A stretch of 64,000 bases of DNA from Chiloscyllium plagiosum (taxonomy: Eukaryota): contig NC_057718.1 in the NCBI RefSeq assembly GCF_004010195.1, positions 65,105,548-65,169,547 on the forward strand, read 5' to 3'. The notes beneath the pieces were generated by a model. It saw nothing but the letters and a program-made list of their open reading frames with translations, did no database searches and was not told the DNA's origin. This document shows, piece by piece, positions 2,188 to 54,764 of the stretch (positions are counted from its first letter, which is position 1; every line of letters begins with the position of its first letter). Made by a program: the position numbers and the translations under genes.

Positions 2188-4673
2188 TAGAGTTGATAAA
2201 ATGTGGTGCTGGAAAAAGCACAGCAGGCCAGACAGCATCTGAGGAGCAAGAAAGTCAATGTTTCGGGCTTAATACTTTATCAAGACTGGGGAGCGGGAAG
2301 TGGGTTGAGAAATAAATGGGGGTTGGGCCCGAAGGAAAGGTAGTTGAGATGGCAATAGGTAGGCAAAGGTAGGAGATGGTTGTGATAGATTGGTGGAAAA
2401 TGTGGAGCAAATTAGTGGGAAGGAAGATGGGCAGGTAGATCATGTCAAGAGGGCGGAGTCAAGTCGGAGGGTTGGATCTGGGATGGGGTGGGGAGAGGAG
2501 ATATTGGGAAACTGGTGAATTCAACGTTGAGACTGCGTGGTTGTAGGTTTCCAAGATGGAAGATGAGGTGTTCCTCCTCCAGTTTGTGGGTGGTCTTTGT
2601 TTAGGTAGTGAAGGGAGCCCAGACTGGACATGTCATGGGGGGGAGTGGGAGAGTGAGTTGAAATAGATGGCAACAGGAAGGTGGAGTTTGTTGGTGCATA
2701 TGGACCAAAGATGTTCTCTGAACCATTCTGTGAATTTGCGGTTGATCTCTCCGATGTAGAGAAGACCACATCAACAACAACAGATGCAGTAAATGAAGTT
2801 CAAGGATCTGCAAGTAAATCTCTGGTGGATTTGGAATGATCCTCTGGGGCCTTGGATGGAGGTGAGAGAGGAAGTGTGAGCACAGGTTTTGTACCTCTTG
2901 CAGCAGGGAAGGGTGCCAGGTGTGGAGAGGGGGTTGAAGGGGAGCGTGGACCTAACCAGGGAGTCGTGGAGGAAATGGTCCCTACGGAATACAGATAGGG
3001 TTGGAAATATATTTTTGGGGGTGGGATCTTACTGTAGGTGGTGAAAATGATGGAGGATGTTATGCTGGATTTGGAGATTAGTGGGATGGAATGTCAGGAC
3101 CATTGGGGATTCTTTCCTTGTTGTGGTTGGGTGGGTGGGGTTTGAGAGCAGAGGTGCAGGAATTGGAGGATTGAGGGCATTGTTAATCACAGAGGAGGGG
3201 AAATTATGGTCCTGGAAATAGGTGGACACCTGGGATGTCCTGGAATGGAATCACTCATCTTGGGAGCAAATAGGGTGGAGGTGGAGGAGTTGGGAGTATG
3301 GGATCGCATTTTTACAGGGGGCAGATGGGAGGTGTAGTCAAGGTAGCTGTGGGTATTGGTGGATTTGAAGTAGATGTCTGTGTTAAGTCAATTGCTACAG
3401 GGGTCCAAGAAGGGGAGGGAGGTGTCAGAGATGGTCCAGGTAAATCTGAGGTCAGAGTGGAAGGTGTGGGTGAAGCGGATGAACTGTTCAAGCTTCTCGT
3501 GGGAGCACGAGGCAGCACTGACCCAGTCATCAATGTAAGCGAGCGAAGGATAAGGGATGGTGCCAGTGTAACTGTGGAAGATGGACTGTTCCACGTATCT
3601 TATGAAGAGGCAAGCATAGCTCGGACCCATGCAGGTACCCTTACCCTACTTCCGGGATCATAACTTCTCTTCCCATTATCAACATTGCCCTCAATCACAT
3701 CTCCTTCATTTCCCGCACCTCTGCCCTCAAATCCCATTCTCCCTAACTGCACCAAGGATAGAATCCCCTGGTCCTCACATTCCACCCACTAATCTCCAAA
3801 TTCAGCATATCATCCTCTGCCATTTTCAACACCTACAGTCAGACCCCACTAGCAACAATATATTTTCCTCCCCACCCCTATCTGCATTCCGTAGGGACCA
3901 CCGACTCCACTCGTGGCACCTTCCCTTGCTGCTGTAAGAGATGCAAAACCTGTGCCCACAGCTCCCCCCTCAGCTCCATCCAACACCCCTAAGAATCATT
4001 TCAAATCTGGCAAATTGGATATCCTCAATCCTCATTTACTGCATCCATTGCTCTCGATGTGGTCTTCTCTACATTGGAGAGATCGAGTGCACACTTGTAG
4101 AACAGTTCAAGGAACATCTCTGGTCTGTATGCACCAACCAACCCCCTTCCTCTAGCCATCCATTTCAACTCTGTCTCCCACTCCCCCCATGACATGTCAT
4201 TCTGGGCTTCCTCCACAGGGTAAACAAGGTCACCTGCAAACTGGAGGAGGAACACCTCATCTTCCACCTAATCTAGGCAGCCTACAACCACGCAGCCTCA
4301 ACATTGATTTCACCAGTTTCCAAATCTCCTCACCCCATCCCAAATCCAAATTACCGACTTGGCTCTGCCTTCTTGACCTGACCTACCTGCCCATCTTCCT
4401 TTCCACCTATTGGATTGACACTTCCCACCGAGCTATCACAGTCACCTCCTACCTTCACCCACCTTTCGCCATCCCAACTACCTTTCCCCCAGTCCCACCC
4501 CTTCCTTCTATTTATTTCTCAGCCTCCTCCCCCCTCCCCAGTCCTGATGAAATGTTAAGCTGAAATGTCGACTTTCTTGCTCCTCGGATGCTGCCTCACC
4601 AGCTGTGCTTTTTTCCAGTGCCACATTTTATCGATTCTGACTTCTCCAGCATCTGCTTCTCCTCACCTTCTCC
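2188..4673. mobile_element. Penelope-like (Neptune-type) element in inverted fold-back configuration inserted in CR1: minus arm 2188-~3631, plus arm ~3632-4673
   Basis: Minus arm MGPSYACLF..YIDD (RT) plus GIY-YIG remains; plus arm IYCIHCSRCGLLYIGE (GIY-YIG); 12-bp TSD taggacacttgt at 2176-2187 and 4674-4685. Confidence 0.9.
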
Positions 4674-6104: not shown

Positions 6105-6346
6105 GATTAAAAACCAAAAGAATTGCAGATGCTGTAAATCAAAATAAAAACAGAAATTGCTGGAAAAGCTTAGCATGTCTGGCAGCATCTGTGAAGAGAA
6201 ATCAGAATTCATGTTTTGGGTCTGGTGACCCTTTCTCCAGAATCCTCTGTTCTGAGGAAGGTTTGCCGGACCTGAAACATGAACTCTGATTTCTCTTCAC
6301 AGATGCTACCAGACATGCTGAGCTGTTCCAACAATTTCTGTTTTTG
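6105..6346 (-). mobile_element. Short fold-back PLE-derived element with hammerhead motif
   Basis: ~95-bp inverted arms (6146-6242 / 6250-6345); TSD atctggatcta 6094-6104 and 6347-6357; gtt-ctgagga-aggt..acct-gaaacatg-aac at 6249-6284. Confidence 0.85.
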
Positions 6347-7949: not shown

Positions 7950-8064
7950 CAGAAATCACACAACACCAGCTTATAGTGCAACAGGTTTATTTGACTATAA
8001 CCTGGTGTTGTGTGATTTCTGACTTTGTCCACCCCAGTCCATAACCAGAACCTCCACACCATTG
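7950..8064 (+). mobile_element. Mini fold-back PLE remnant (second pLTR family)
   Basis: tcagaaatcacacaacaccag..tatagt inverted against actataacctggtgttgtgtgatttctga; TSD ctataaatt 7941-7949 and 8065-8073. Confidence 0.75.
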
Positions 8065-9157: not shown

Positions 9158-9371
9158 ATCTAGATTAGAGTGATGCTGAAAAAGCACAGCAGGTCAGGCA
9201 GCATCCGAGGGGCAGGGATATCGATGTTTCGGGCAGGAGCCCTTCATCAGGAATGCTCCTGCCTGAAATATTGATTTACCTGCTCCTCGGATGCTGCCTG
9301 ACCTGCTGTGCTTTTTCAGCATCACTCTAATCTTAACTCTGATCTCCAGCATTTGCAGTCCTCACTTTCAC
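9158..9371 (+). mobile_element. Short fold-back PLE-derived element
   Basis: ~80-bp inverted arms; 15-bp TSD cttgtatccactgga 9143-9157 and 9372-9386. Confidence 0.9.
9219..9254 (-). ncRNA. Minimal hammerhead ribozyme motif
   Basis: attc-ctgatga-a-gggc-tcct-gccc-gaaacatc-gata. Confidence 0.7.
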
Positions 9372-10018: not shown

Positions 10019-10622
10019 GTTGTGGTTCTGTTCGCCGAGCTGGAAGTTTTTGTTGCAATGGTTTCGTCCCCTGGCTAGGCGACATCATCAGTGCTTGGAA
10101 GCCTCCTGCGAAGCGCTTCTTTGATGTTTCCTCCGGTGTTTATAGTGGTCTGTCCCTGCCGCTTCCGGTTGAAGACAGGAAGGCAGCTAACAATCCGCAT
10201 ACATGAACATCAACTAGCCACGAAACGACACGACCAGCTATCCTCAGTAGCCACACACGCAGACAACAAGCAACATGAATTCGACTGAGACAACACTACT
10301 ATCATAGGGCAAGCCAAACAGAGAACAGCCAGGGAATTCCTAGAGGCATAGCATTCATCCACAAACTCCATCAACAAACACATCGACCTGGACCCAATAT
10401 ACCAACCACTACAGCGGACAGCTGAAACTGACAACCGGAAGCGGCAGGGACAGACCACTATAAACACCGGAGGAAACATCAAAGAAGCGCTTCGCAGGAG
10501 GCTCCCAAGCACTGATGATGTCGCCTAGCCAGGGGACGAAACCATTGCAACAAAAACTTCCAGCTCGGCGAACAGAACCACAACAACGAGCACCCGAGCT
10601 ACAAATCTTCGCACAAACTTTG
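10019..10622 (+). mobile_element. Penelope/Poseidon-type PLE, 5'-truncated, with inverted pLTR
   Basis: GIY-YIG C-term KTGRQLTIRIHEHQLATKRHDQLSSVATH; ~152-bp near-perfect inverted arms 10019-10171 / 10432-10584; 12-bp TSD atgagtatctct 10007-10018 and 10623-10634. Confidence 0.9.
10509..10548 (+). ncRNA. Hammerhead ribozyme motif (mirror copy at 10055-10094, minus)
   Basis: gca-ctgatga-t-gtcgcct-agcc-aggggac-gaaaccat-tgc; stems I and II pair; cleavage triplet region atypical. Confidence 0.65.
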
Positions 10623-16820: not shown

Positions 16821-18034
16821 CATGAAAAAAATAATAATACAGTATCTAATGAAGAACAATACCAGTAAATGGGATTGAAATTTTGTTAAGGCAAGCTGTG
16901 TGTTTGATAAACTTCATTGAATAAATTAATTAAATTGCAGAGAGAACAATAAGGATAGTGCAACTGATGCATATATGTATTTTCAATTTGCATAGGATAA
17001 AATATGTCATAATAAATCTGTTAACAAAACTGAAGCACATGCAATGAAAGGGGCAATGGTATAAATGTGAAACTGGCAGAGTCAGAAAAAGAGAGCAATG
17101 TGAACCTTACTTTTTCAGACTAGAGGGTAGTGTAAAATGGCATATCTGGGGATCAGTACAGACTGCTGTTTTTTTGTTGGATATTAATAAATTAGTCATA
17201 GGTTGCTTGGCAGAATTTAAAATTATGCAGATGATTAAATTCATGCAAAGAAGTGTAATGTGAAACATTTTGGTTGGATGAGCAAGGGAATGTGATTATA
17301 AATTGTGCCCACAATTGTAAAGTGGTACTGCAGAGAGAAATAGGAATGTGGGTTTTTGAAAAGGAAGCTGTAATAGAGAAAGCTGTTGGAAAAGCAATTG
17401 GGATCACTGACTTTGTAAAGGAGTAACCAAAACTCCCCAAAATAGCTGAAATCTAAAACTTGAAAAATTTAAAATCCAAAACCTACCATACTTTGAACCT
17501 GCCCATGGAGGTGAAACTATAGAAGCTGAGCACTTTCTCTTTCAAGAACAGGTAAGTCAGTAAACCTTTCAGGAGGTTGGATGCCTTCATTTTAACAAGT
17601 TTACTATTTTTTCTTGATGTTGGCCTTGTTTCCTGGACCTCATGTAAGACAGAATGAGCTAAGGAGTAGAAGTAATGCTGCCACCATACCGATAAGCTTA
17701 CCCCGTAAGCTGAACCTGCAATATCCATAATTACTATCCTCACTATCCCCACTATCAACAGCACATCGAATGCACGGCCTGAAAGAGTGGTAAAAGCAGA
17801 TTTATCTTGGCTTTGAAAAGGCATTAAGTGCTTTAATGGAAAGATATGCAAGGCCTGGATGGCAAGGATAGCAAGTGGGACTAGCTGGTTTGGTCTTGTC
17901 TAGAGTCAGTACGGATGCAATGGGCCAAGTGACTTCCTTCTGTGCTGTAACCATTTTTGTGATTCAATGATAGAGCCCAGCAATTTGACAGTGAAACCAG
18001 GAAGTTTTTTTCTCACCAAGTATAGTGGAATTAT

Positions 18035-18248
18035 AGTTGAAACTTTATTGCTGGAACAGCGCAGCAGGTCAGGCAGCATCCAGGGAACAGGAGATTCGAC
18101 ATTTCGGGCACAGGCCCTTCTTCAGGAATAAGGGCCTGTGCCCGAAACGTCGAATCTCCTGTTCCCTGGATGCTGCCTGACCTGCTGCGCTGTTCCAGCA
18201 ATAAAGTTTCAACTTTGATCTCCAGCATCTGCAGACCTCACTTTCTCC
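18035..18248 (+). mobile_element. Young short fold-back PLE-derived element
   Basis: ~85-bp near-perfect inverted arms; TSD tagtggaattat(ag) 18023-18036 and 18249-18262; 34-nt unpaired tail. Confidence 0.92.
18094..18129 (-). ncRNA. Minimal hammerhead ribozyme motif, complete stems I and II
   Basis: attc-ctgaaga-a-gggc-ctgt-gccc-gaaatgtc-gaat. Confidence 0.8.
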
Positions 18249-19209
18249 TAGTGGAATTATAGACATTTTCACTCAAAAGGCTGTGAATCAATTCAATTTA
18301 TTCAGATTGAGATTGAGAGCTTTTTGTTAACTGCAAGTAGCTTTTAAACAAAAGCAATAAAATTTAAGTGCAGATCAGTCATATCTAATTAAACAGCAGA
18401 AAAAGCTTGAAGGGTTGGGTTGTGTAACATCTTCCAATTTCACAACTGCATTAAGCAATATTTCCTCATTTTTCACACTTTTGTGCCAATGAAGGTCCTT
18501 GAGAAATGTGAAAGCAGTTATTACAAGGGTTGATTAGTCAATTTTGATCTATCAATGAGAAAGGGTTCTAAAGGGAAATAGATTACTATGAAAAGTGTTG
18601 CTGAGCTCTTTGCAAGTGAATTGTTGACAAAATCACAAACTAATTTACTGATATTGTTCTTTATTAAATATTGCATTATTATTTCTTTTTCATTGATCAG
18701 ACCAGCTGCAATTTTATTTTGCCCTTTTTGTCAGATTTATTACCCATATTAATAACTTTCCCTGAAACCCAATGTGGACAATCATTTGCATTTCCTGTTT
18801 GTATGCCAACTGCAGCTCCATTATAGCAATTTTGCCTTTGATTTAGAAGTTTGGAGGATGTTGGTTATAGTACTTGAGCACAAAAGGCAGACTGTTCTGA
18901 AGTAATAATCAGGGAGTGCAGTATGTCCTTGAGATGAGACATAAGCTGAATGCCGATCTTCATTATGTAAAACATCCAATTGCACTGACCAATATTTACT
19001 TCTCAATCAACAACGTACAGACACATATCAGGCCATGATTACTTTGCTGGGAGTATTTTAGCTGCCATATTTCCTACATTACAACTGTGATGACCGTTCA
19101 GAAGTACTTAATAGACTGTAAGGCACATAGGAATATAGTGGAAAAGAATACAATGGTGCAGTTCACGATGCATCAAACAAGACATTTAATTTGGTTTTCA
19201 TTTTTGAAA

Positions 19210-32217: not shown

Positions 32218-33080
32218 AATAACCCGGGTCTGAGCAGAGAATGATTTAAAAGGTAGATAACAAAGGTGGAGATGAGGATATGGCTGAACAAATCAGTAGC
32301 TGTGAAAAGATAATTGGAACCAGAGAGATCGAAAGTGCATTGTAAGTAAATTGAGGGATAAATTTTTGTTGGTGTAGGAAGGAGCATGTTGGGAGAGGTT
32401 TGAGGTATGTGGCAGAAAGCAATGCAATGAAGATTGCTATGATGGAAATAACAAGGCTAAATCTGATGAGAATGCTATAGGGATGGAGACAAATACAATT
32501 TGGGGAATTTATACTGAGGGAGAATTTAATGAAAAAAAAGGAAGACAGTGAAGTCACGGGCAAAAGAACACAGTGAACTGAGTTGTAGTCTGAAATCTTC
32601 GAGGACGAGATAGTAGTCAGTGCAGAAGCTGAACAAAAAAACTCATGAAGTATCTTGGTGAGAAAATGAGCACAGTAGTTGAGTGAGTGATAGCAAATTG
32701 AGATTTGAAATTATTGATTAGCAGGGTGTAACATTCCTTGAAATGTTCAAGGGATGAGAAGGTGTCAGAGGAGCAGGGAATAGGCCAAAGTGTGATTAGT
32801 GACAAGAACCAGAACTCCTTCCTGGCAATTTGGGTGGACCAACCAGTGTAAGTTAGAGTCAAGCAAAGAACCTTTATTAAGGGAGAAGGTTTCATTACCT
32901 TAAGGCAGACCAGGATGTCAATGTACCCAATTGCGATAAAGAAGGCCCTGCCAACCATGAGTTTATGAGTGAATGGATATTACAGAGAAAGATGCAATGA
33001 AGGGCATTTGAGCACTGATCCCTAACAAAGTCCACACAATGTCAGCACTGACAAAGTTAGGTTGAGCAGCAAGAAAAATG

Positions 33081-33273
33081 GGAGAAAGTGAGGACTGCAG
33101 ATGCTGGAGATCAGAGTCAAAAAGTGTAGTGCTGGAAAAACACAGCTGGTCAGGCAGCATCTGAGGAGCAGAAGAGTCAACGTTTCAAGCATTAGCTCTG
33201 ATGAAGACCTTATGCTCGAAACATCGACTCCCCTGCTCCTCGATACAGCCTGACTGGCTGCTACACTTTTCGA
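33081..33273 (-). mobile_element. Short fold-back PLE-derived element with hammerhead remnant
   Basis: Inverted arms around ctgatga..gaaacatcgact (33198-33229); TSD cagcaagaaaa 33067-33077 and 33274-33284. Confidence 0.85.
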
Positions 33274-33699: not shown

Positions 33700-35277
33700 C
33701 TGGTTCTACCACCTTCCCAAGATCCACAAGCCTGACCACCCTGGCCGACCCATTGTCTCAGCATGCTCCTGCCCCACTGAACTCATCTCTACCTACCTCA
33801 ACACTGTCCTATCCCCCCTAGTCCAGGCACTCCCCACATACGTTCAGGACACTACCCATGCCCTTCACCTCCTCCAAGACTTCCATTTCCCTGGCCCCTA
33901 ATGCCTCATCTTCACCATGGATATCCAATCCCTCTACACCTCCATCTGCCATGACCTGGGTCTCCAAGTCCTCCGTTTCTTCCTCTCCCGATGTCCCCAA
34001 CAGTACCCTTCCACCAACACTCTCATTCGTTTGGCCAAACTGGTTCTCACCCTTAACAATTTCTCCTTTGAATCCTCCCACTTCCTCCAGACCAAAGGGG
34101 TAGCCATGGGCACCTGTATGGGACCCAGCTATGCCTGTCTCTTTGTGGGCTCCATAGAACAGCCATTTTCCGTAATTACACCGGCACCACTCCCCACCTC
34201 TTTCTCCGCTACATTGATGACTGCATTGGCACCACCTTGTGCTCCCGCAAGGAGGTTAAGCAATTCATCAACTTCACCAACACACTTCACCCTGACCTTA
34301 AATTTACCTGGACCATCTCTGACACCTCCCTCCCCTTCCTGGACCTCTCCATCTCCATCAGTGACGACCGACTTGACACTGACATCTTCTACAAACCCAC
34401 CGACTCCCACAGCTACCTGGATTACACCTCTTCCCACCCTACCTCTTGCAAAAATGCCATCCCGTATCCCCAATTCCTCCGCCTCCGCCGTATCAACTCC
34501 CAGGAGGAGCGGTTCCACCATAGAACACACCAGATGGCCACCTTCTTTAGAGACCGCAATTTCCCTTCCCACCTGGTTAAAGATGCCCTCCAANNNNNNN
34601 NNNNNNNNNNNNNNNNNNNNNNNNNNNNNNNNNNNNNNNNNNNNNNNNNNNNNNNNNNNNNNNNNNNNNNNNNNNNNNNNNNNNNNNNNNNNNNNNNNNN
34701 NNNNNNNNNNNNNNNNNNNNNNNNNNNNNNNNNNNNNNNNNNNNNNNNNNNNNNNNNNNNNNNNNNNNNNNNNNNNNNNNNNNNNNNNNNNNNNNNNNNN
34801 NNNNNNNNNNNNNNNNNNNNNNNNNNNNNNNNNNNNNNNNNNNNNNNNNNNNNNNNNNNNNNNNNNNNNNNNNNNNNNNNNNNNNNNNNNNNNNNNNNNN
34901 NNNNNNNNNNNNNNNNNNNNNNNNNNNNNNNNNNNNNNNNNNNNNNNNNNNNNNNNNNNNNNNNNNNNNNNNNNNNNNNNNNNNNNNNNNNNNNNNNNNN
35001 NNNNNNNNNNNNNNNNNNNNNNNNNNNNNNNNNNNNNNNNNNNNNNNNNNNNNNNNNNNNNNNNNNNNNNNNNNNNNNNNNNNNNNNNNNNNNNNNNNNN
35101 NNNNNNTCATTTATCTCTCCACCCTGCAGGCACTCTGCCTGTATTCCTGATTAAGGGCTTTTGCCCGAAACATCGATTTTCCTGCGCCTCGGATGCTGCC
35201 TGAACTGCTGTGCTTTTTTAGCAAGACTCTAATCTAGAATCTGGTTTCCTGCATCAGCAGTCATTGTTTTTCCTTAC
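33671..35277 (+). mobile_element. Penelope-like (Neptune-type) element: RT region, gap, 3' pLTR
   Basis: LPKIHKPDHPGRPIVS, MDIQSLYT, QTKGVAMGTCMGPSYACLF, RYIDD, LPFLDL, YKPTDSHSYLD; hammerhead-like motif at 35143-35178; (tttga)n on both flanks. Confidence 0.93.
34594..35106. other. Assembly gap (513 N)
   Basis: N run. Confidence 1.
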
Positions 35278-39770: not shown

Positions 39771-41565
39771 TGTTCAATGCTAATGCCACAGGATTTTCAT
39801 TCCTCCCTGCTAAGCAAGCACTGATATCATTGAAATGAATAATTTGTTAGTCCTGAGATCGATTAAATTGGATGGAATGTGAATATGTCCCACCAGTTTT
39901 TTGCATCATGGAATCAGATACACCGTCCAAATTTTCACAAAATCAGGAAGATTCTACATACCTTTAAAAATGGCAGGCAGGGCCCAGATACAGAAATTAT
40001 ATCCAATTTACATCTGAAACCATTTCTACTGGTGGTGGTATAAGCTGGGTATTTTTCACATATTGAGGCATATCATATTTTTGATGGTCCATTTAAAAGT
40101 AATTGAGAATTGAAACAGTCTCCACTTTGGGTATTGCAAAGGCCTTAATCCACAATGTACGCGTCACAAATTGCTTCATTAAGTTTCATAAACTACAATT
40201 ATCCCATCAGGAGATTCCAAGTTCAAAGTTTGATTGACAACTTAAAGACGTTAGTAAAGATTTGGTTCTTTTAACGTACTTAGTGAAATATATGTTTGTT
40301 TTTATAAGAAATTAAGCACTTGAGAAGGTTTAAAAGCTCTGAATGGTTTTTGTGATTTTTTTTCACTACCAAATTATAGGAATGAGAGCTACTTGAGTTT
40401 ATTAAAAACATTTTTTTTAACCTTCTCATGGTGGCTGAGGTCTGCCTATGGGGATACTGAGTGGCTATGGAGATGGCACAGACATTATGAGGAGCATGGG
40501 AGTAGATGGCAACTAAATTGACATGGGGCTAGGAGAGAACATAGGAGTGACAGTTGAGAGGTCATGAGGGGTGAAGATAGTAGGGCCAAGCAACTTCTAA
40601 AGTAATGGTGATAAAATCTAAGATAAATGAGGTGGACCTTCTATTGAACCCTAATCAGCACTCGGTATCTATGCTCCACTTCCAGGATTGGCATGTCTGG
40701 CTCCATTTCAGGCCTCACAAGCCAAGAGTTAAACTTACTCTATTTCAGGATACTTTATACAAGACAGACGTGGTGCGTCAGGAAATACTCGAATACAAGG
40801 TACTGGCCTTGGTGCCCATAATCCAGCCCATAGATATCTAAGCCAGTGAGTGAAAATTACTATTATTTAATCCAGGACAAATGCACATTTGGCTCAGGAT
40901 GCGAACACCAGTTTCATTCAGGACACCAATTTTGTCCTACGGTGTAAACTTCAATGAAGGATTGTTTACTGATCAACAGTATTAATTTAGGTCTGCACAG
41001 AATTAATGGACTGAAAGCTTTTAACACTTCATTCTAAGCAGAACCAGATTTTCGTGAGCCTTTAATCCCACAGTGGCCGCTACAAAGAAACCCATACTAA
41101 TGTTTTACTATTGAGGAAGCATTTCCATTGGATGAAGCCTGCAGCACTCTATCATATAACTCTCATGGACCATTTCTAAAAGCTGCACCTTTTGTTTGTG
41201 AAATGTCCTTGTTTGCTGAGTGAAGTGTACAGCTCAATCTTTCTTAAACAAGAATAAACAGGCTCCTGCTTCAAATGAACTGCACTACTTACTCCTAATC
41301 TTTTGTTATCACTCTCAGATTCAACTATTTCAATGTGCTCTTAGCTGTTCTTCAGCCTTAAAATAAATGTGGATGCATCCAAAGCTCTGACGTGATATCC
41401 TATTTCACATCATTAATCCTCCACTTGGCACCTGGATTCTGCAGTGCCTTAAAATAATATTTTCATCACTGGGTTTAAATCCTTTCATGGCCTTGCCTTT
41501 GCTTTTCCATAATCTTCTTCAAACAAACCTTGTATCTGAGGCTTATAGGAGGCAAATAAATAGAA

Positions 41566-42050
41566 ATCATAAGTCACACAATACCAGTTGAGAGTCCAAC
41601 ATGTTTATTTGAATCATTAGCTTTTGGAGCGTTGTTCCAACATCAGGTGAAGTGAAGGAAAGCACACCATCTTATTTTTGATTTGTTGTAATTATCTCTC
41701 TGCTTTGATTAAGTGAACCATACGTCATCCCTTCACTTGCTATTCAGCTGTTGACATTTTACTCACACCATTTGACACTTTTGATCACCTGCAAAGACTT
41801 GTTATTCAGCCTGTCCACATTCCACTCACATCATTTGTACAATCTTTTGACACTCTAAATTATCTGGAGTTATCTTGCAATTATCTCTCCACCTATAAAT
41901 TCTGTGCCTGTGTATTTCCCTCCACTTCACCTTGAGAAGGAGCAGTGCTCTGAAAGCTTGTGATTTCAAATAAACCTGTTGGACTATAACCTGGTATTGT
42001 GTGACTTCTGACTTTGTCCACCCCAGTCCAACACCAGCACCTCCACATCA
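41566..42050 (+). mobile_element. Fold-back PLE-derived element (second pLTR family) with degenerate hammerheads
   Basis: ~100-bp inverted arms 41567-41668 / 41910-42011; TSD caaataaa(t/c)agaa 41553-41565 and 42051-42063; 39-nt tail. Confidence 0.8.
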
Positions 42051-43344: not shown

Positions 43345-45222
43345 AGTGATCAAACCATGGCTTATGAGGGAACTTAGAGATAGTATTAAATGCAAAGCAG
43401 AGGCATACAAATTGACAAGAGAAAACAAGAGACCTGAGGATTAGGAAGTCAACAAAGGAGGACCAATGGATTAACGAAGAAGGGAAAAATAGACTATCAG
43501 TAAGTTTGCAGGAATCTAAGAGCTGACTGTAAACGTTTCTATAAGTATATAAAGTGAAAAAGATTGATGAAAAGTGATGTAGGTCCCTTATAGTCAGAAA
43601 TAGGGGAATTTATAATGGCAAACAAAGAAATGACTGACAAACTAAATTCATACTTAACTTCTGTCCTCACAAAGGAAAGCATGAATAAGAAATGAGAGGA
43701 TTTAGTGACAAGGCGGAAGTGAATCAATTCTGTATTAGTAAAAAAAGTGTTGGAAAAATTGATGGGCTTGAACGCTGATAAATCCACCAGAGCTGATAAC
43801 CTATATCCCAGAGTTCTTATGGAAGTAATCCCAGAAATAGTGGAAGCAGTTGTGATCATCTTCCAAAATTCTTTTAGATACTAGAACAGTTCTTACAGAC
43901 CAGAGGGTAGTTAATGTAACGGCACTAATTAAAAACGGTGTTGGGAGAAAACTGGGAATTATAGACCAGTGAGTCTGACATTGGAAGTGCAGAAGATGCT
44001 AGAGTGCATTATCAAAGATTTTATCACAGAGCACTTAGAAAACAATAGAAGAATCAAATTAGAGTCAGCATGCTTGACTTATTTACTGGAATTGTTCAAT
44101 GATGTAACTAGTAGAGGTCAAATTGGGGAGACAAATGTGGTTTATTTGGATTTTCAGAAAGCTTTTGACAAAGTCCCACAAAATAGATTAATGTGTAAAA
44201 TTAAAGCACATGTGATTGTATTTAGATGGATAGAAAATTAGTTAGCAGACAGGAAATAAAAAGCAGGAATAAATGGGTCTTTTTATCAACAGCAGGCTGT
44301 GACGATTGCTGTCGGGATTAGTACTAGAACTCCAGATATTTACAATATATATTCATGATTTAGATGAGGGAATTAAGTGAAATATCTCAAAATCTGCAGA
44401 TGAGACAAAATCTGGGTGGAAGGGTGAACTATGAGGAGAATGCAGCAAAGTTGCAATGTGATCGATGCAGGTTGAGAGAGTGATCAAATGAATGACCGTC
44501 ACAGTGAAATGTGGATAAATATGAGGTTATCCACTTTGGTAGCAAAAGTAGGAAGGCAGATTATTATTTGACTGTAAATTGAGAGAGGGGAATGTTCAAT
44601 GAGACCTGCACCAATCACTGAGAGTAAACGTACTATTGCAGCAGACACTAAAGAAGGAAAATTCTATTTTGGCATTCAAAGCCAAGAGGATTGCAGGAAC
44701 CAGGATGTCTCACTGCAATTTATATAGGGCATTAGTGAGACCTGGAATATTGGCCTCCATTGTTGCTAGGACTACTTCCTTAAGAACTCTGGGATATAGG
44801 TTATCAGCTCTGATGGATTTATCAGCCTTCAATCCCCTCAATTTTTCCAACACTGTTTCTTTACTTATACAGAATTGATTCAGTTTTGGTTTCCTTATCT
44901 GAAGAAGGATTTTCTTGCTATCGAGGGTGTGCAGTAAGGGTTTACCAGACTGAATCATGGGACGGCTGACTGATGTACAAGGAGAGATGAAGTTGGTTAG
45001 GATCGTGTTCACTGGAGTTTAGAAGAATGAGGGGGAAATCTCATAGAAACCTATAAAAATCAAACAGGAGAAGACAAGTGTTCCAGATGATGGAGGAATT
45101 CAAAACGCATTGTTTAAGCACGAGGTAAAGTTTTTAAAGTCTGAGACAAGGAGAAATTTCTTCACCAGATAGTGGTGAGCCTGTGGAATTCACTACCACG
45201 GAATGTGGTCGAAGCCAAAACA
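43345..45222 (+). mobile_element. Old CR1 ORF2 fragment (linker-RT-3')
   Basis: ADKSTRADNLYPRVL, NYRPVSLT, VVYLDFQKAFDKVPQNRL motifs. Confidence 0.88.
44753..44882 (-). repeat. Inverted ~130-bp copy of 43720-43847 inserted within the same CR1
   Basis: Reverse complement shares aatcaattctgtat..gagctgataacctatatcccagagttctt with the upstream segment. Confidence 0.85.
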
Positions 45223-54590: not shown

Positions 54591-54764
54591 AGGCAGCATC
54601 CAGGGAATAGGAGAGTCGACGTTTCGGGCATAAGCCCTTCCTGAAGAAGGGCTTATGCCCGAAACGTCGACTCTCCTATTCCCTGGATGCTGCCTGACCT
54701 GCTGCGCTTTTCCAGCAACACATTTCCAGCTCTAATCTCCAGCATCTGCAGACCTCACTTTCTC
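54591..54764 (+). mobile_element. Young short fold-back PLE-derived element
   Basis: Perfect 50-bp inverted arms; 15-bp TSD ctctaatgttattga 54577-54591 and 54765-54779. Confidence 0.92.
54641..54672 (+). ncRNA. Minimal hammerhead core with intact conserved nucleotides
   Basis: ctgaaga-a-gggc-ttat-gccc-gaa-acgt-c-gact; 5' strand of stem I replaced by the inversion junction. Confidence 0.75.

Follow-up and report, generated by a model that had tools for sequence, protein, structure and literature searches.

We examined a 64,000-nucleotide stretch of the genome of Chiloscyllium plagiosum (the window), in which a 214-bp hairpin, here called the type copy, lies between direct repeats that we treat as target-site duplications (TSDs; Table 1). 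Its coordinates are given below together with element numbers, in which +1 is the A of TCATTCC. The two inverted arms are 94 nt long and 96% complementary, and a 34-nt unpaired tail extends the right-hand arm, so numbered +11 to +129, on one side only. Beyond the tail, the parent element runs on into an ORF leader. The predicted RNA fold of the type copy has a free energy of -178 kcal/mol (z -22), and none of 200 shuffled sequences equals it. The hairpin, tail and repeats described at position 18035 in the initial annotation are real, and the flanking repeat, TAGTGGAATTATAG, is exact over 14 bp. That annotation also placed a hammerhead motif at the hairpin apex. The core is whole only on the minus strand, in the left arm, with a CpG-type change within its short helix III; the plus-strand arm begins at +11 and is without CUGANGA. 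If the type hairpin forms, the hammerhead is predicted to be sequestered in its duplex.

Table 1. Features of the type hairpin and of four other fold-backs in the window.
Feature	Position	Strand	Basis
TSD, left copy, 14 bp; final 2 nt also match the element	18023..18036	+	
Tail-less inverted arm, element +95 back to +1	18035..18129	-	
Whole minimal type-I hammerhead motif (ATTC-CTGAAGA-A-GGGC/CTGT/GCCC-GAAA-TGTC^GAAT)	18094..18129	-	motif scan and fold
Sense arm, +11 to +95; hammerhead without 5' core; predicted cut after 18151 (+32)	18130..18214	+	
Unpaired tail, 34 nt, +96 to +129, between the two putative priming sites	18215..18248	+	
TSD, right copy	18249..18262	+	
Fold-back of the same layout, different PLE family, 11-bp TSD	6105..6346	+	
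Older related fold-back, 15-bp TSD	9158..9371	+	
Older related fold-back, 11-bp TSD	33078..33273	-	
Related fold-back, shortened left arm, 15-bp TSD	54592..54764	+	

The type hairpin is the pseudo-LTR (pLTR) end of a Penelope-like element (PLE) of the GIY-YIG kind, and a very young one. At two loci, L141 and L142, the unit lies directly downstream of a frame with a Pfam GIY-YIG match (E 8.4e-05, above the cut-off), and copies that extend further 5' run into a GIY-YIG frame preceded by a CX4CxxC linker. The L141 translation has CTRRRCNTC at this place, that is, a CX2-5CxxC linker before GIY-YIG, which marks Neptune and Nematis PLEs (PMC8557442). We place the parent as probably of Neptune/Nematis type by this cysteine linker, because the RT region of the best copy, L141, falls in an assembly gap; a related fragment in the window matches RVT_1 only at E 0.008, below the cut-off, and an intact RT was not found among 20 fetched stretches. 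In the other direction, copies that extend further 3' enter an ORF beginning MPSLKKL about 38 nt past the tail. The subfamily shares with EN+ PLEs a 30-40 bp tail on one end and both inverted and tandem pLTRs. Many long copies adjoin assembly gaps, and at L141 the parent ORF has a 39-bp proline-rich tandem repeat beside such a gap (minus strand, 1490-1696).

Similar insertions had been listed near 6105, 9158, 33081 and 54591. All four are fold-backs with TSDs of the lengths given in Table 1, but they are not one family. The unit at 6105 matches the type copy over about 66 nt only, at 79%, and thus belongs to another PLE family, while likeness to the type copy is 88% at 54591 and 74-76% at 9158 and 33081. 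The density of one per 13 kb that was given for these insertions pools several families; with an exact probe, the type subfamily occurs about 2.8 times per Mb. The window also contains, at 10019-10622, a fold-back of another PLE family, presumably Poseidon-like, with 154-nt arms (99%) that enclose a C-terminal ORF remnant, a 37-nt tail and a 12-bp TSD. A further PLE family is represented by fold-backs at 7950-8064 and 41561-42050, each with a one-sided tail and flanked by direct repeats of 9 and 8 bp respectively, so that the layout recurs in about four families in the window. Longer, older PLE remnants with RT-like frames are found at 2683-4145, itself a long inverted pair, and at 33902-35270. 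The inverted pair at 43717-44885 (106 + 30 nt, about 900 bp apart) is unlike PLEs and resembles LINE sequence.

A 38-nt tail probe matched 9,927 loci in the 3.56-Gb assembly, and its reversed control matched none. We took as a sample the first 94 matches on contig C1, bearing in mind that an exact probe favours young copies. They comprise 45 short fold-backs, 7 long fold-backs, 38 copies without a detected inverted partner and 4 that were filtered out. Two copies (L037 and L050) were not counted as fold-backs because their inverted match belongs to another element, and one true short fold-back (L076) was lost to the distance filter. Scaling 45/94 to all matched loci gives an estimate of about 4,700 short fold-backs genome-wide. 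They are very young: comparison of the tail arms with one reference copy showed 3 differences in 2,068 bases, a figure that reflects the preference of the exact probe for young copies. The tail ends at +129 to +131 in 68 of the 94 sampled copies, and the inverted arm ends, at what we call the inner site, at +94 to +96 in 38 of the 52 fold-backs. TSDs of 12-17 bp flank 38 of 41 short fold-backs, and all 41 controls gave 6 bp or less.

The hinge between the arms is variable. We found 38 hinge types among the 45 short fold-backs, the commonest occurring five times with 3 nt of microhomology; at two copies (L081 and L082) the hinge contains about six untemplated T after an arm end at +1. With fixed outer ends and variable hinges, alignment across copies supports the reading of most of them as abortive integration products, one of the two options that the initial annotation had offered. 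The hinge of the type copy occurs at only 5 loci genome-wide, once with the tail on the opposite arm, and when these loci were compared for private variants none carried that of the type copy, so we regard the type copy, too, as a one-off product. The other option, a non-autonomous hairpin retroelement, is true of a minority described below and not of the type copy. An A specific to the left arm in most of the 30 best matches was considered as a family mark and rejected as query bias, since the unbiased sample has G.

The inner limit of the arms is sharp. In the genome as a whole, +1 is reached by 9,376 arms and -8 by only 4,621, a drop of which mutation accounts for a small part. About half of all arms stop between +1 and -7, at the 5' edge of the hammerhead in TCATTCC, and solo arms, tailed or tail-less, also end at +1 with their own TSD. 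The motif TCATTCC fits the initiator consensus YYANWYY. Penelope of D. virilis has an internal promoter with an initiator (PMC2377424). Position +1 of the element studied here is a probable transcription start. Among the first 100 matches the base at -1 is G in 44, A in 45 and T in 11; many of these are explained by hinge or TSD microhomology, and a cap-derived G signal is ambiguous. RNA reads from run X19 gave 733 matches on both strands, 91% of them continuing into unlike sequence, without a start peak, and run X20 gave no matches; these reads do not serve as evidence here. A 3' splice site at +1 was ruled out, as there is no AG there.

By motif scan and by the fold of +1 to +39, a minimal hammerhead occupies +1 to +36, and its cut is predicted to fall after +32. 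The pLTR of the subfamily thus appears to carry a minimal type-I hammerhead motif, in agreement with the published description; an Rfam search of the 64-kb window did not return a hammerhead among its results. We considered ribozyme cleavage as the origin of the hinge and rejected it, because only 5 of 142 sampled arm ends fall at +29 to +34, with two more near the predicted cut (+30 and +33) among further long arms. Arms end instead at +1, some 31 nt to the 5' side of that cut, so the ribozyme does not set the hinge. The scarcity of arms ending at the cut agrees with uncleaved RNA as the main template in PMC11167929. At two loci, L341 and L252, inverted arms with a TSD begin at about +34/35, adjoining the predicted cut, and these were possibly primed on a cleaved RNA end.

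Some hairpins have multiplied as such. In the V family, one hinge occurs at 99 loci and a private A-to-G change on the tail arm at 79, with both at 52 unlinked loci; 25 of the first 30 loci with the variant carry the V hinge. In the W family, with 34 loci, all 30 viewed have the same hinge and variants. Identical hinges with diagnostic mutations at unlinked loci, which had been named as the mark of a propagating family, are therefore seen in this minority (the 52-locus and 34-locus sets) and not for the type copy. Together with new TSDs, they indicate that the V and W subsets, about 1-2% of the subfamily, are propagating non-autonomous families.

The marked V copies allow the two arms to be followed separately. 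Where the second arm of a V daughter covers the marked site, it is unmarked in 14 of 14 cases; 13 of these arms terminate near +95, and for most of them a new TSD can be seen. Sixteen V loci have one host junction in common. One of them, the source site L341 on contig C26, has the 13-bp TSD of the original insertion, and its inverted arm begins only at +35; the other 15 have new 3' flanks and carry between 22 and at least 1,500 nt of host DNA copied from upstream. At L334 and L337, a tail-less arm that extends to -149 or -100 completes the insertion, and the TSD matches. A far tail-less arm of this sort is also present at L346, where a TSD was not found, and L347 has a short one with a TSD; the far arm of L338 looks diverged, and we do not count it as strong evidence. 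The far tail-less arms of L334 and L337 are absent from the source stretch, so their two arms came from different templates. This is direct evidence that a single insertion can draw on two templates, and it points to V daughters being made as two cDNAs from two RNAs. In two complete V daughters, the tail-less arm has a variant that is also present in an unrelated copy, L042. Today L341 is without the V variant and has a different hinge and a deletion, and the active master was thus likely another allele or an early daughter. The changed hinge at L341 also shows that hinges can alter after insertion, so part of the hinge variety and of the asymmetry between arms may be later decay of the palindrome. 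A model in which marked arms switch sides in each generation was dropped once the source locus had been found.

Other derivatives of the element were seen at unlinked loci. Long hairpins have common hinges at -71/-162 (L138, L140, L137, L310, L312 and L319) or at -90/-123 (L297 and L321) and are probably further propagating masters. A 224-bp head-to-tail unit, in which the 90 nt immediately following the tail are fused to the pLTR and each unit has a complete hammerhead, occurs at L125/L126, L123/L124 and L144-L149, with pairs spaced by 224 bp on C1, C2, C3, C4, C6 and C8; it looks like a retrozyme-like derivative of the PLE of the type hairpin. Three unlinked sets (L038, L048, L114 and L115; L273 and L289; L033 and L119) have in common the host sequence on their upstream side, beyond which some copies show fragments of a PLE ORF, and may be more 5' transductions.

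We propose, with a probability of roughly 0.7, that the unit is the pLTR end written twice, head to head, between TSDs of 12-17 bp, and that both target strands were nicked and each primed one cDNA. Specifically, the enzyme would nick both strands of the target, and the fixed ends at +94/95 and +129-131 would be two internal start sites of reverse transcription. Both cDNAs would run off the 5' end of the RNA at +1, after about 95 and about 130 nt, and their 3' ends would be joined through 1-3 nt of microhomology or short filler; the hammerhead would leave the template RNA mostly uncut. In the type copy, the tail-less arm at 18035-18129 would be the cDNA primed at the inner site. Work in vitro with a PLE enzyme showed cutting and extension on both strands, from two internal starts that bound a 30-40 nt tail (Frangieh 2024, PMC11167929), and the fixed outer ends seen here fit these two priming sites. 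Most copies, including the type copy, would be one-off products, while a few hairpins, read through from outside promoters, would act as templates in trans, the tail arm being made from hairpin RNA and the tail-less arm from normal PLE RNA. Arm lengths place a constraint on the choice of template: among the 52 fold-backs, 45 are short-short, 7 long-long and none mixed, against about 7-12 mixed pairs expected if the arms were independent, although about 5 mixed-length pairs were seen among 38 further long arms. Such agreement speaks for a single RNA or a single site in the ordinary case, and is awkward for two freely chosen RNAs.

Head-to-head PLE repeats, with palindromes at their inverted junctions, have been read as self-priming on an antisense template (Arkhipova 2013, PMC3846280). 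Here, a single cDNA or antisense template would fold back to give a near-perfect palindrome, and later central deletions would vary the hinges. The agreement of the arms in length class suits this reading, L341 and its V daughters can be derived from a plausible +1/+1 ancestor by deletions with microhomology at their borders, and ten of the short fold-backs fit simple self-priming, which counts against two cDNAs. However, the tail-less arm extends further 5' than the tail arm in 29 of the 45, less far in 10 and equally far in 6 (p=0.003 for 29 versus 10), and a simple fold-back of the tail cDNA cannot give this, as it predicts the opposite. Self-priming also leaves unexplained the tail-less solo arms with TSD and the far arms of the V daughters that are absent at the source locus, and we consider it unlikely.

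The synthesis of two cDNAs could also be combined with a different cause of the stop at +1, namely a protein or structural roadblock at the hammerhead edge instead of the RNA 5' end. Yet half of the arms go through this very stretch and continue for hundreds of bases, the two arms of one copy mostly either both go through or both stop, and a helix should presumably hold up the enzyme on its 3' side, at +33 to +36, which together give a roadblock a slim chance. Least probable of all is that the 214-bp unit is a single ribozyme-processed, retrozyme-like hairpin family copied whole. Thousands of near-identical units with fixed ends, and the existence of true propagating hairpin subfamilies (99 and 34 loci), would be in keeping with it. 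For the type copy it is largely refuted by a hinge that is found in both polarities and without common private variants, by the diversity of hinges in the sample, by a hammerhead that is incomplete on one strand and would lie within the duplex of the hairpin, and by unit ends that do not lie at the cut site.

Beyond the proposal of two cDNAs for the unit itself, a wider generalization is tentative, and we would put it at somewhat under even odds. PLE integration may be a two-RNA, two-cDNA reaction with fixed roles, in which the inner site is used on the element's own RNA and the tail site on any tailed RNA. Short run-off cDNAs, similar to retroviral strong-stop DNA and integrated head to head, would be its commonest outcome, and the resulting hairpins could found a novel type of palindromic non-autonomous retroelement carrying more than 1 kb of upstream host DNA.

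Close opposite-strand hammerhead pairs, inverted truncated copies, tails and minimal hammerheads have already been described (PMC8557442, PMC3846280, PMC4209133), and the origin of the inverted repeats and tail of PLEs is presented as an open question in the available text of PMC8557442 and PMC11167929. Our search of the openly accessible literature, at the level of listings and main-text passages, returned no paper on short head-to-head PLE units as the main product, on hairpin daughters or on two-RNA chimeras. The architecture is thus known, and within the literature so searched the in-vivo evidence for two templates and the propagating hairpins are without match. To within a few bases, the roughly 4,700 very young short fold-backs pinpoint the two priming sites and the inner limit of the template, and the marked families separate the origin of the two arms, so that the mechanism can be tested directly with two differently marked RNAs. 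They also outline a route from an abortive product to a new mobile family and to the copying of upstream host DNA, and they mean that a single animal genome carries a great many near-perfect palindromes.

In L1 twin priming, two cDNAs cover different parts of one RNA. The units described here are similar in that two target ends would each prime a cDNA to give an inverted insertion with a TSD (10.1101/2024.12.14.628481); in contrast to L1, both cDNAs would span one stretch of sequence, starting at two fixed sites, and possibly come from different RNAs. Like non-LTR retrozymes (10.64898/2026.07.22.740005; Cervera 2014, PMC4209133), the units are non-coding, derived from the pLTR, equipped with a type-I minimal hammerhead and dependent on the PLE enzyme. 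Retrozymes, as described there, are head-to-tail tandems with whole ribozymes, whereas the units here are head to head with ends away from the cut site, and the type unit, with one broken motif, does not appear to be a retrozyme.

A biochemical parallel is Poseidon PAc of Anolis, which in vitro cuts and extends both strands from two starts that bound the tail (PMC11167929); its use of uncleaved RNA as main template and its predicted dimer count as further likeness. That work, in its available text, covers the steps before joining and second-strand synthesis. Unlike PAc, the parent element here has a Neptune/Nematis-type cysteine linker, and the first in-frame ATG comes only after its putative start sites. 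As in EN+ PLEs generally (Craig 2021, PMC8557442; Arkhipova 2013, PMC3846280), an inverted truncated copy stands beside a direct copy with a tail on one end and a TSD, a minimal hammerhead lies in the pLTR and host DNA is captured in trans. The units differ from EN+ PLEs as described in the available text of these papers in that the two copies, shortened to about 95 and 130 nt, end at a sharp inner limit that they share, in that such short units form about half of a 10,000-copy subfamily, and in that some have founded hairpin families. The units are mostly explained by known PLE biology, and they offer an unusually clean in-vivo record of the integration step.
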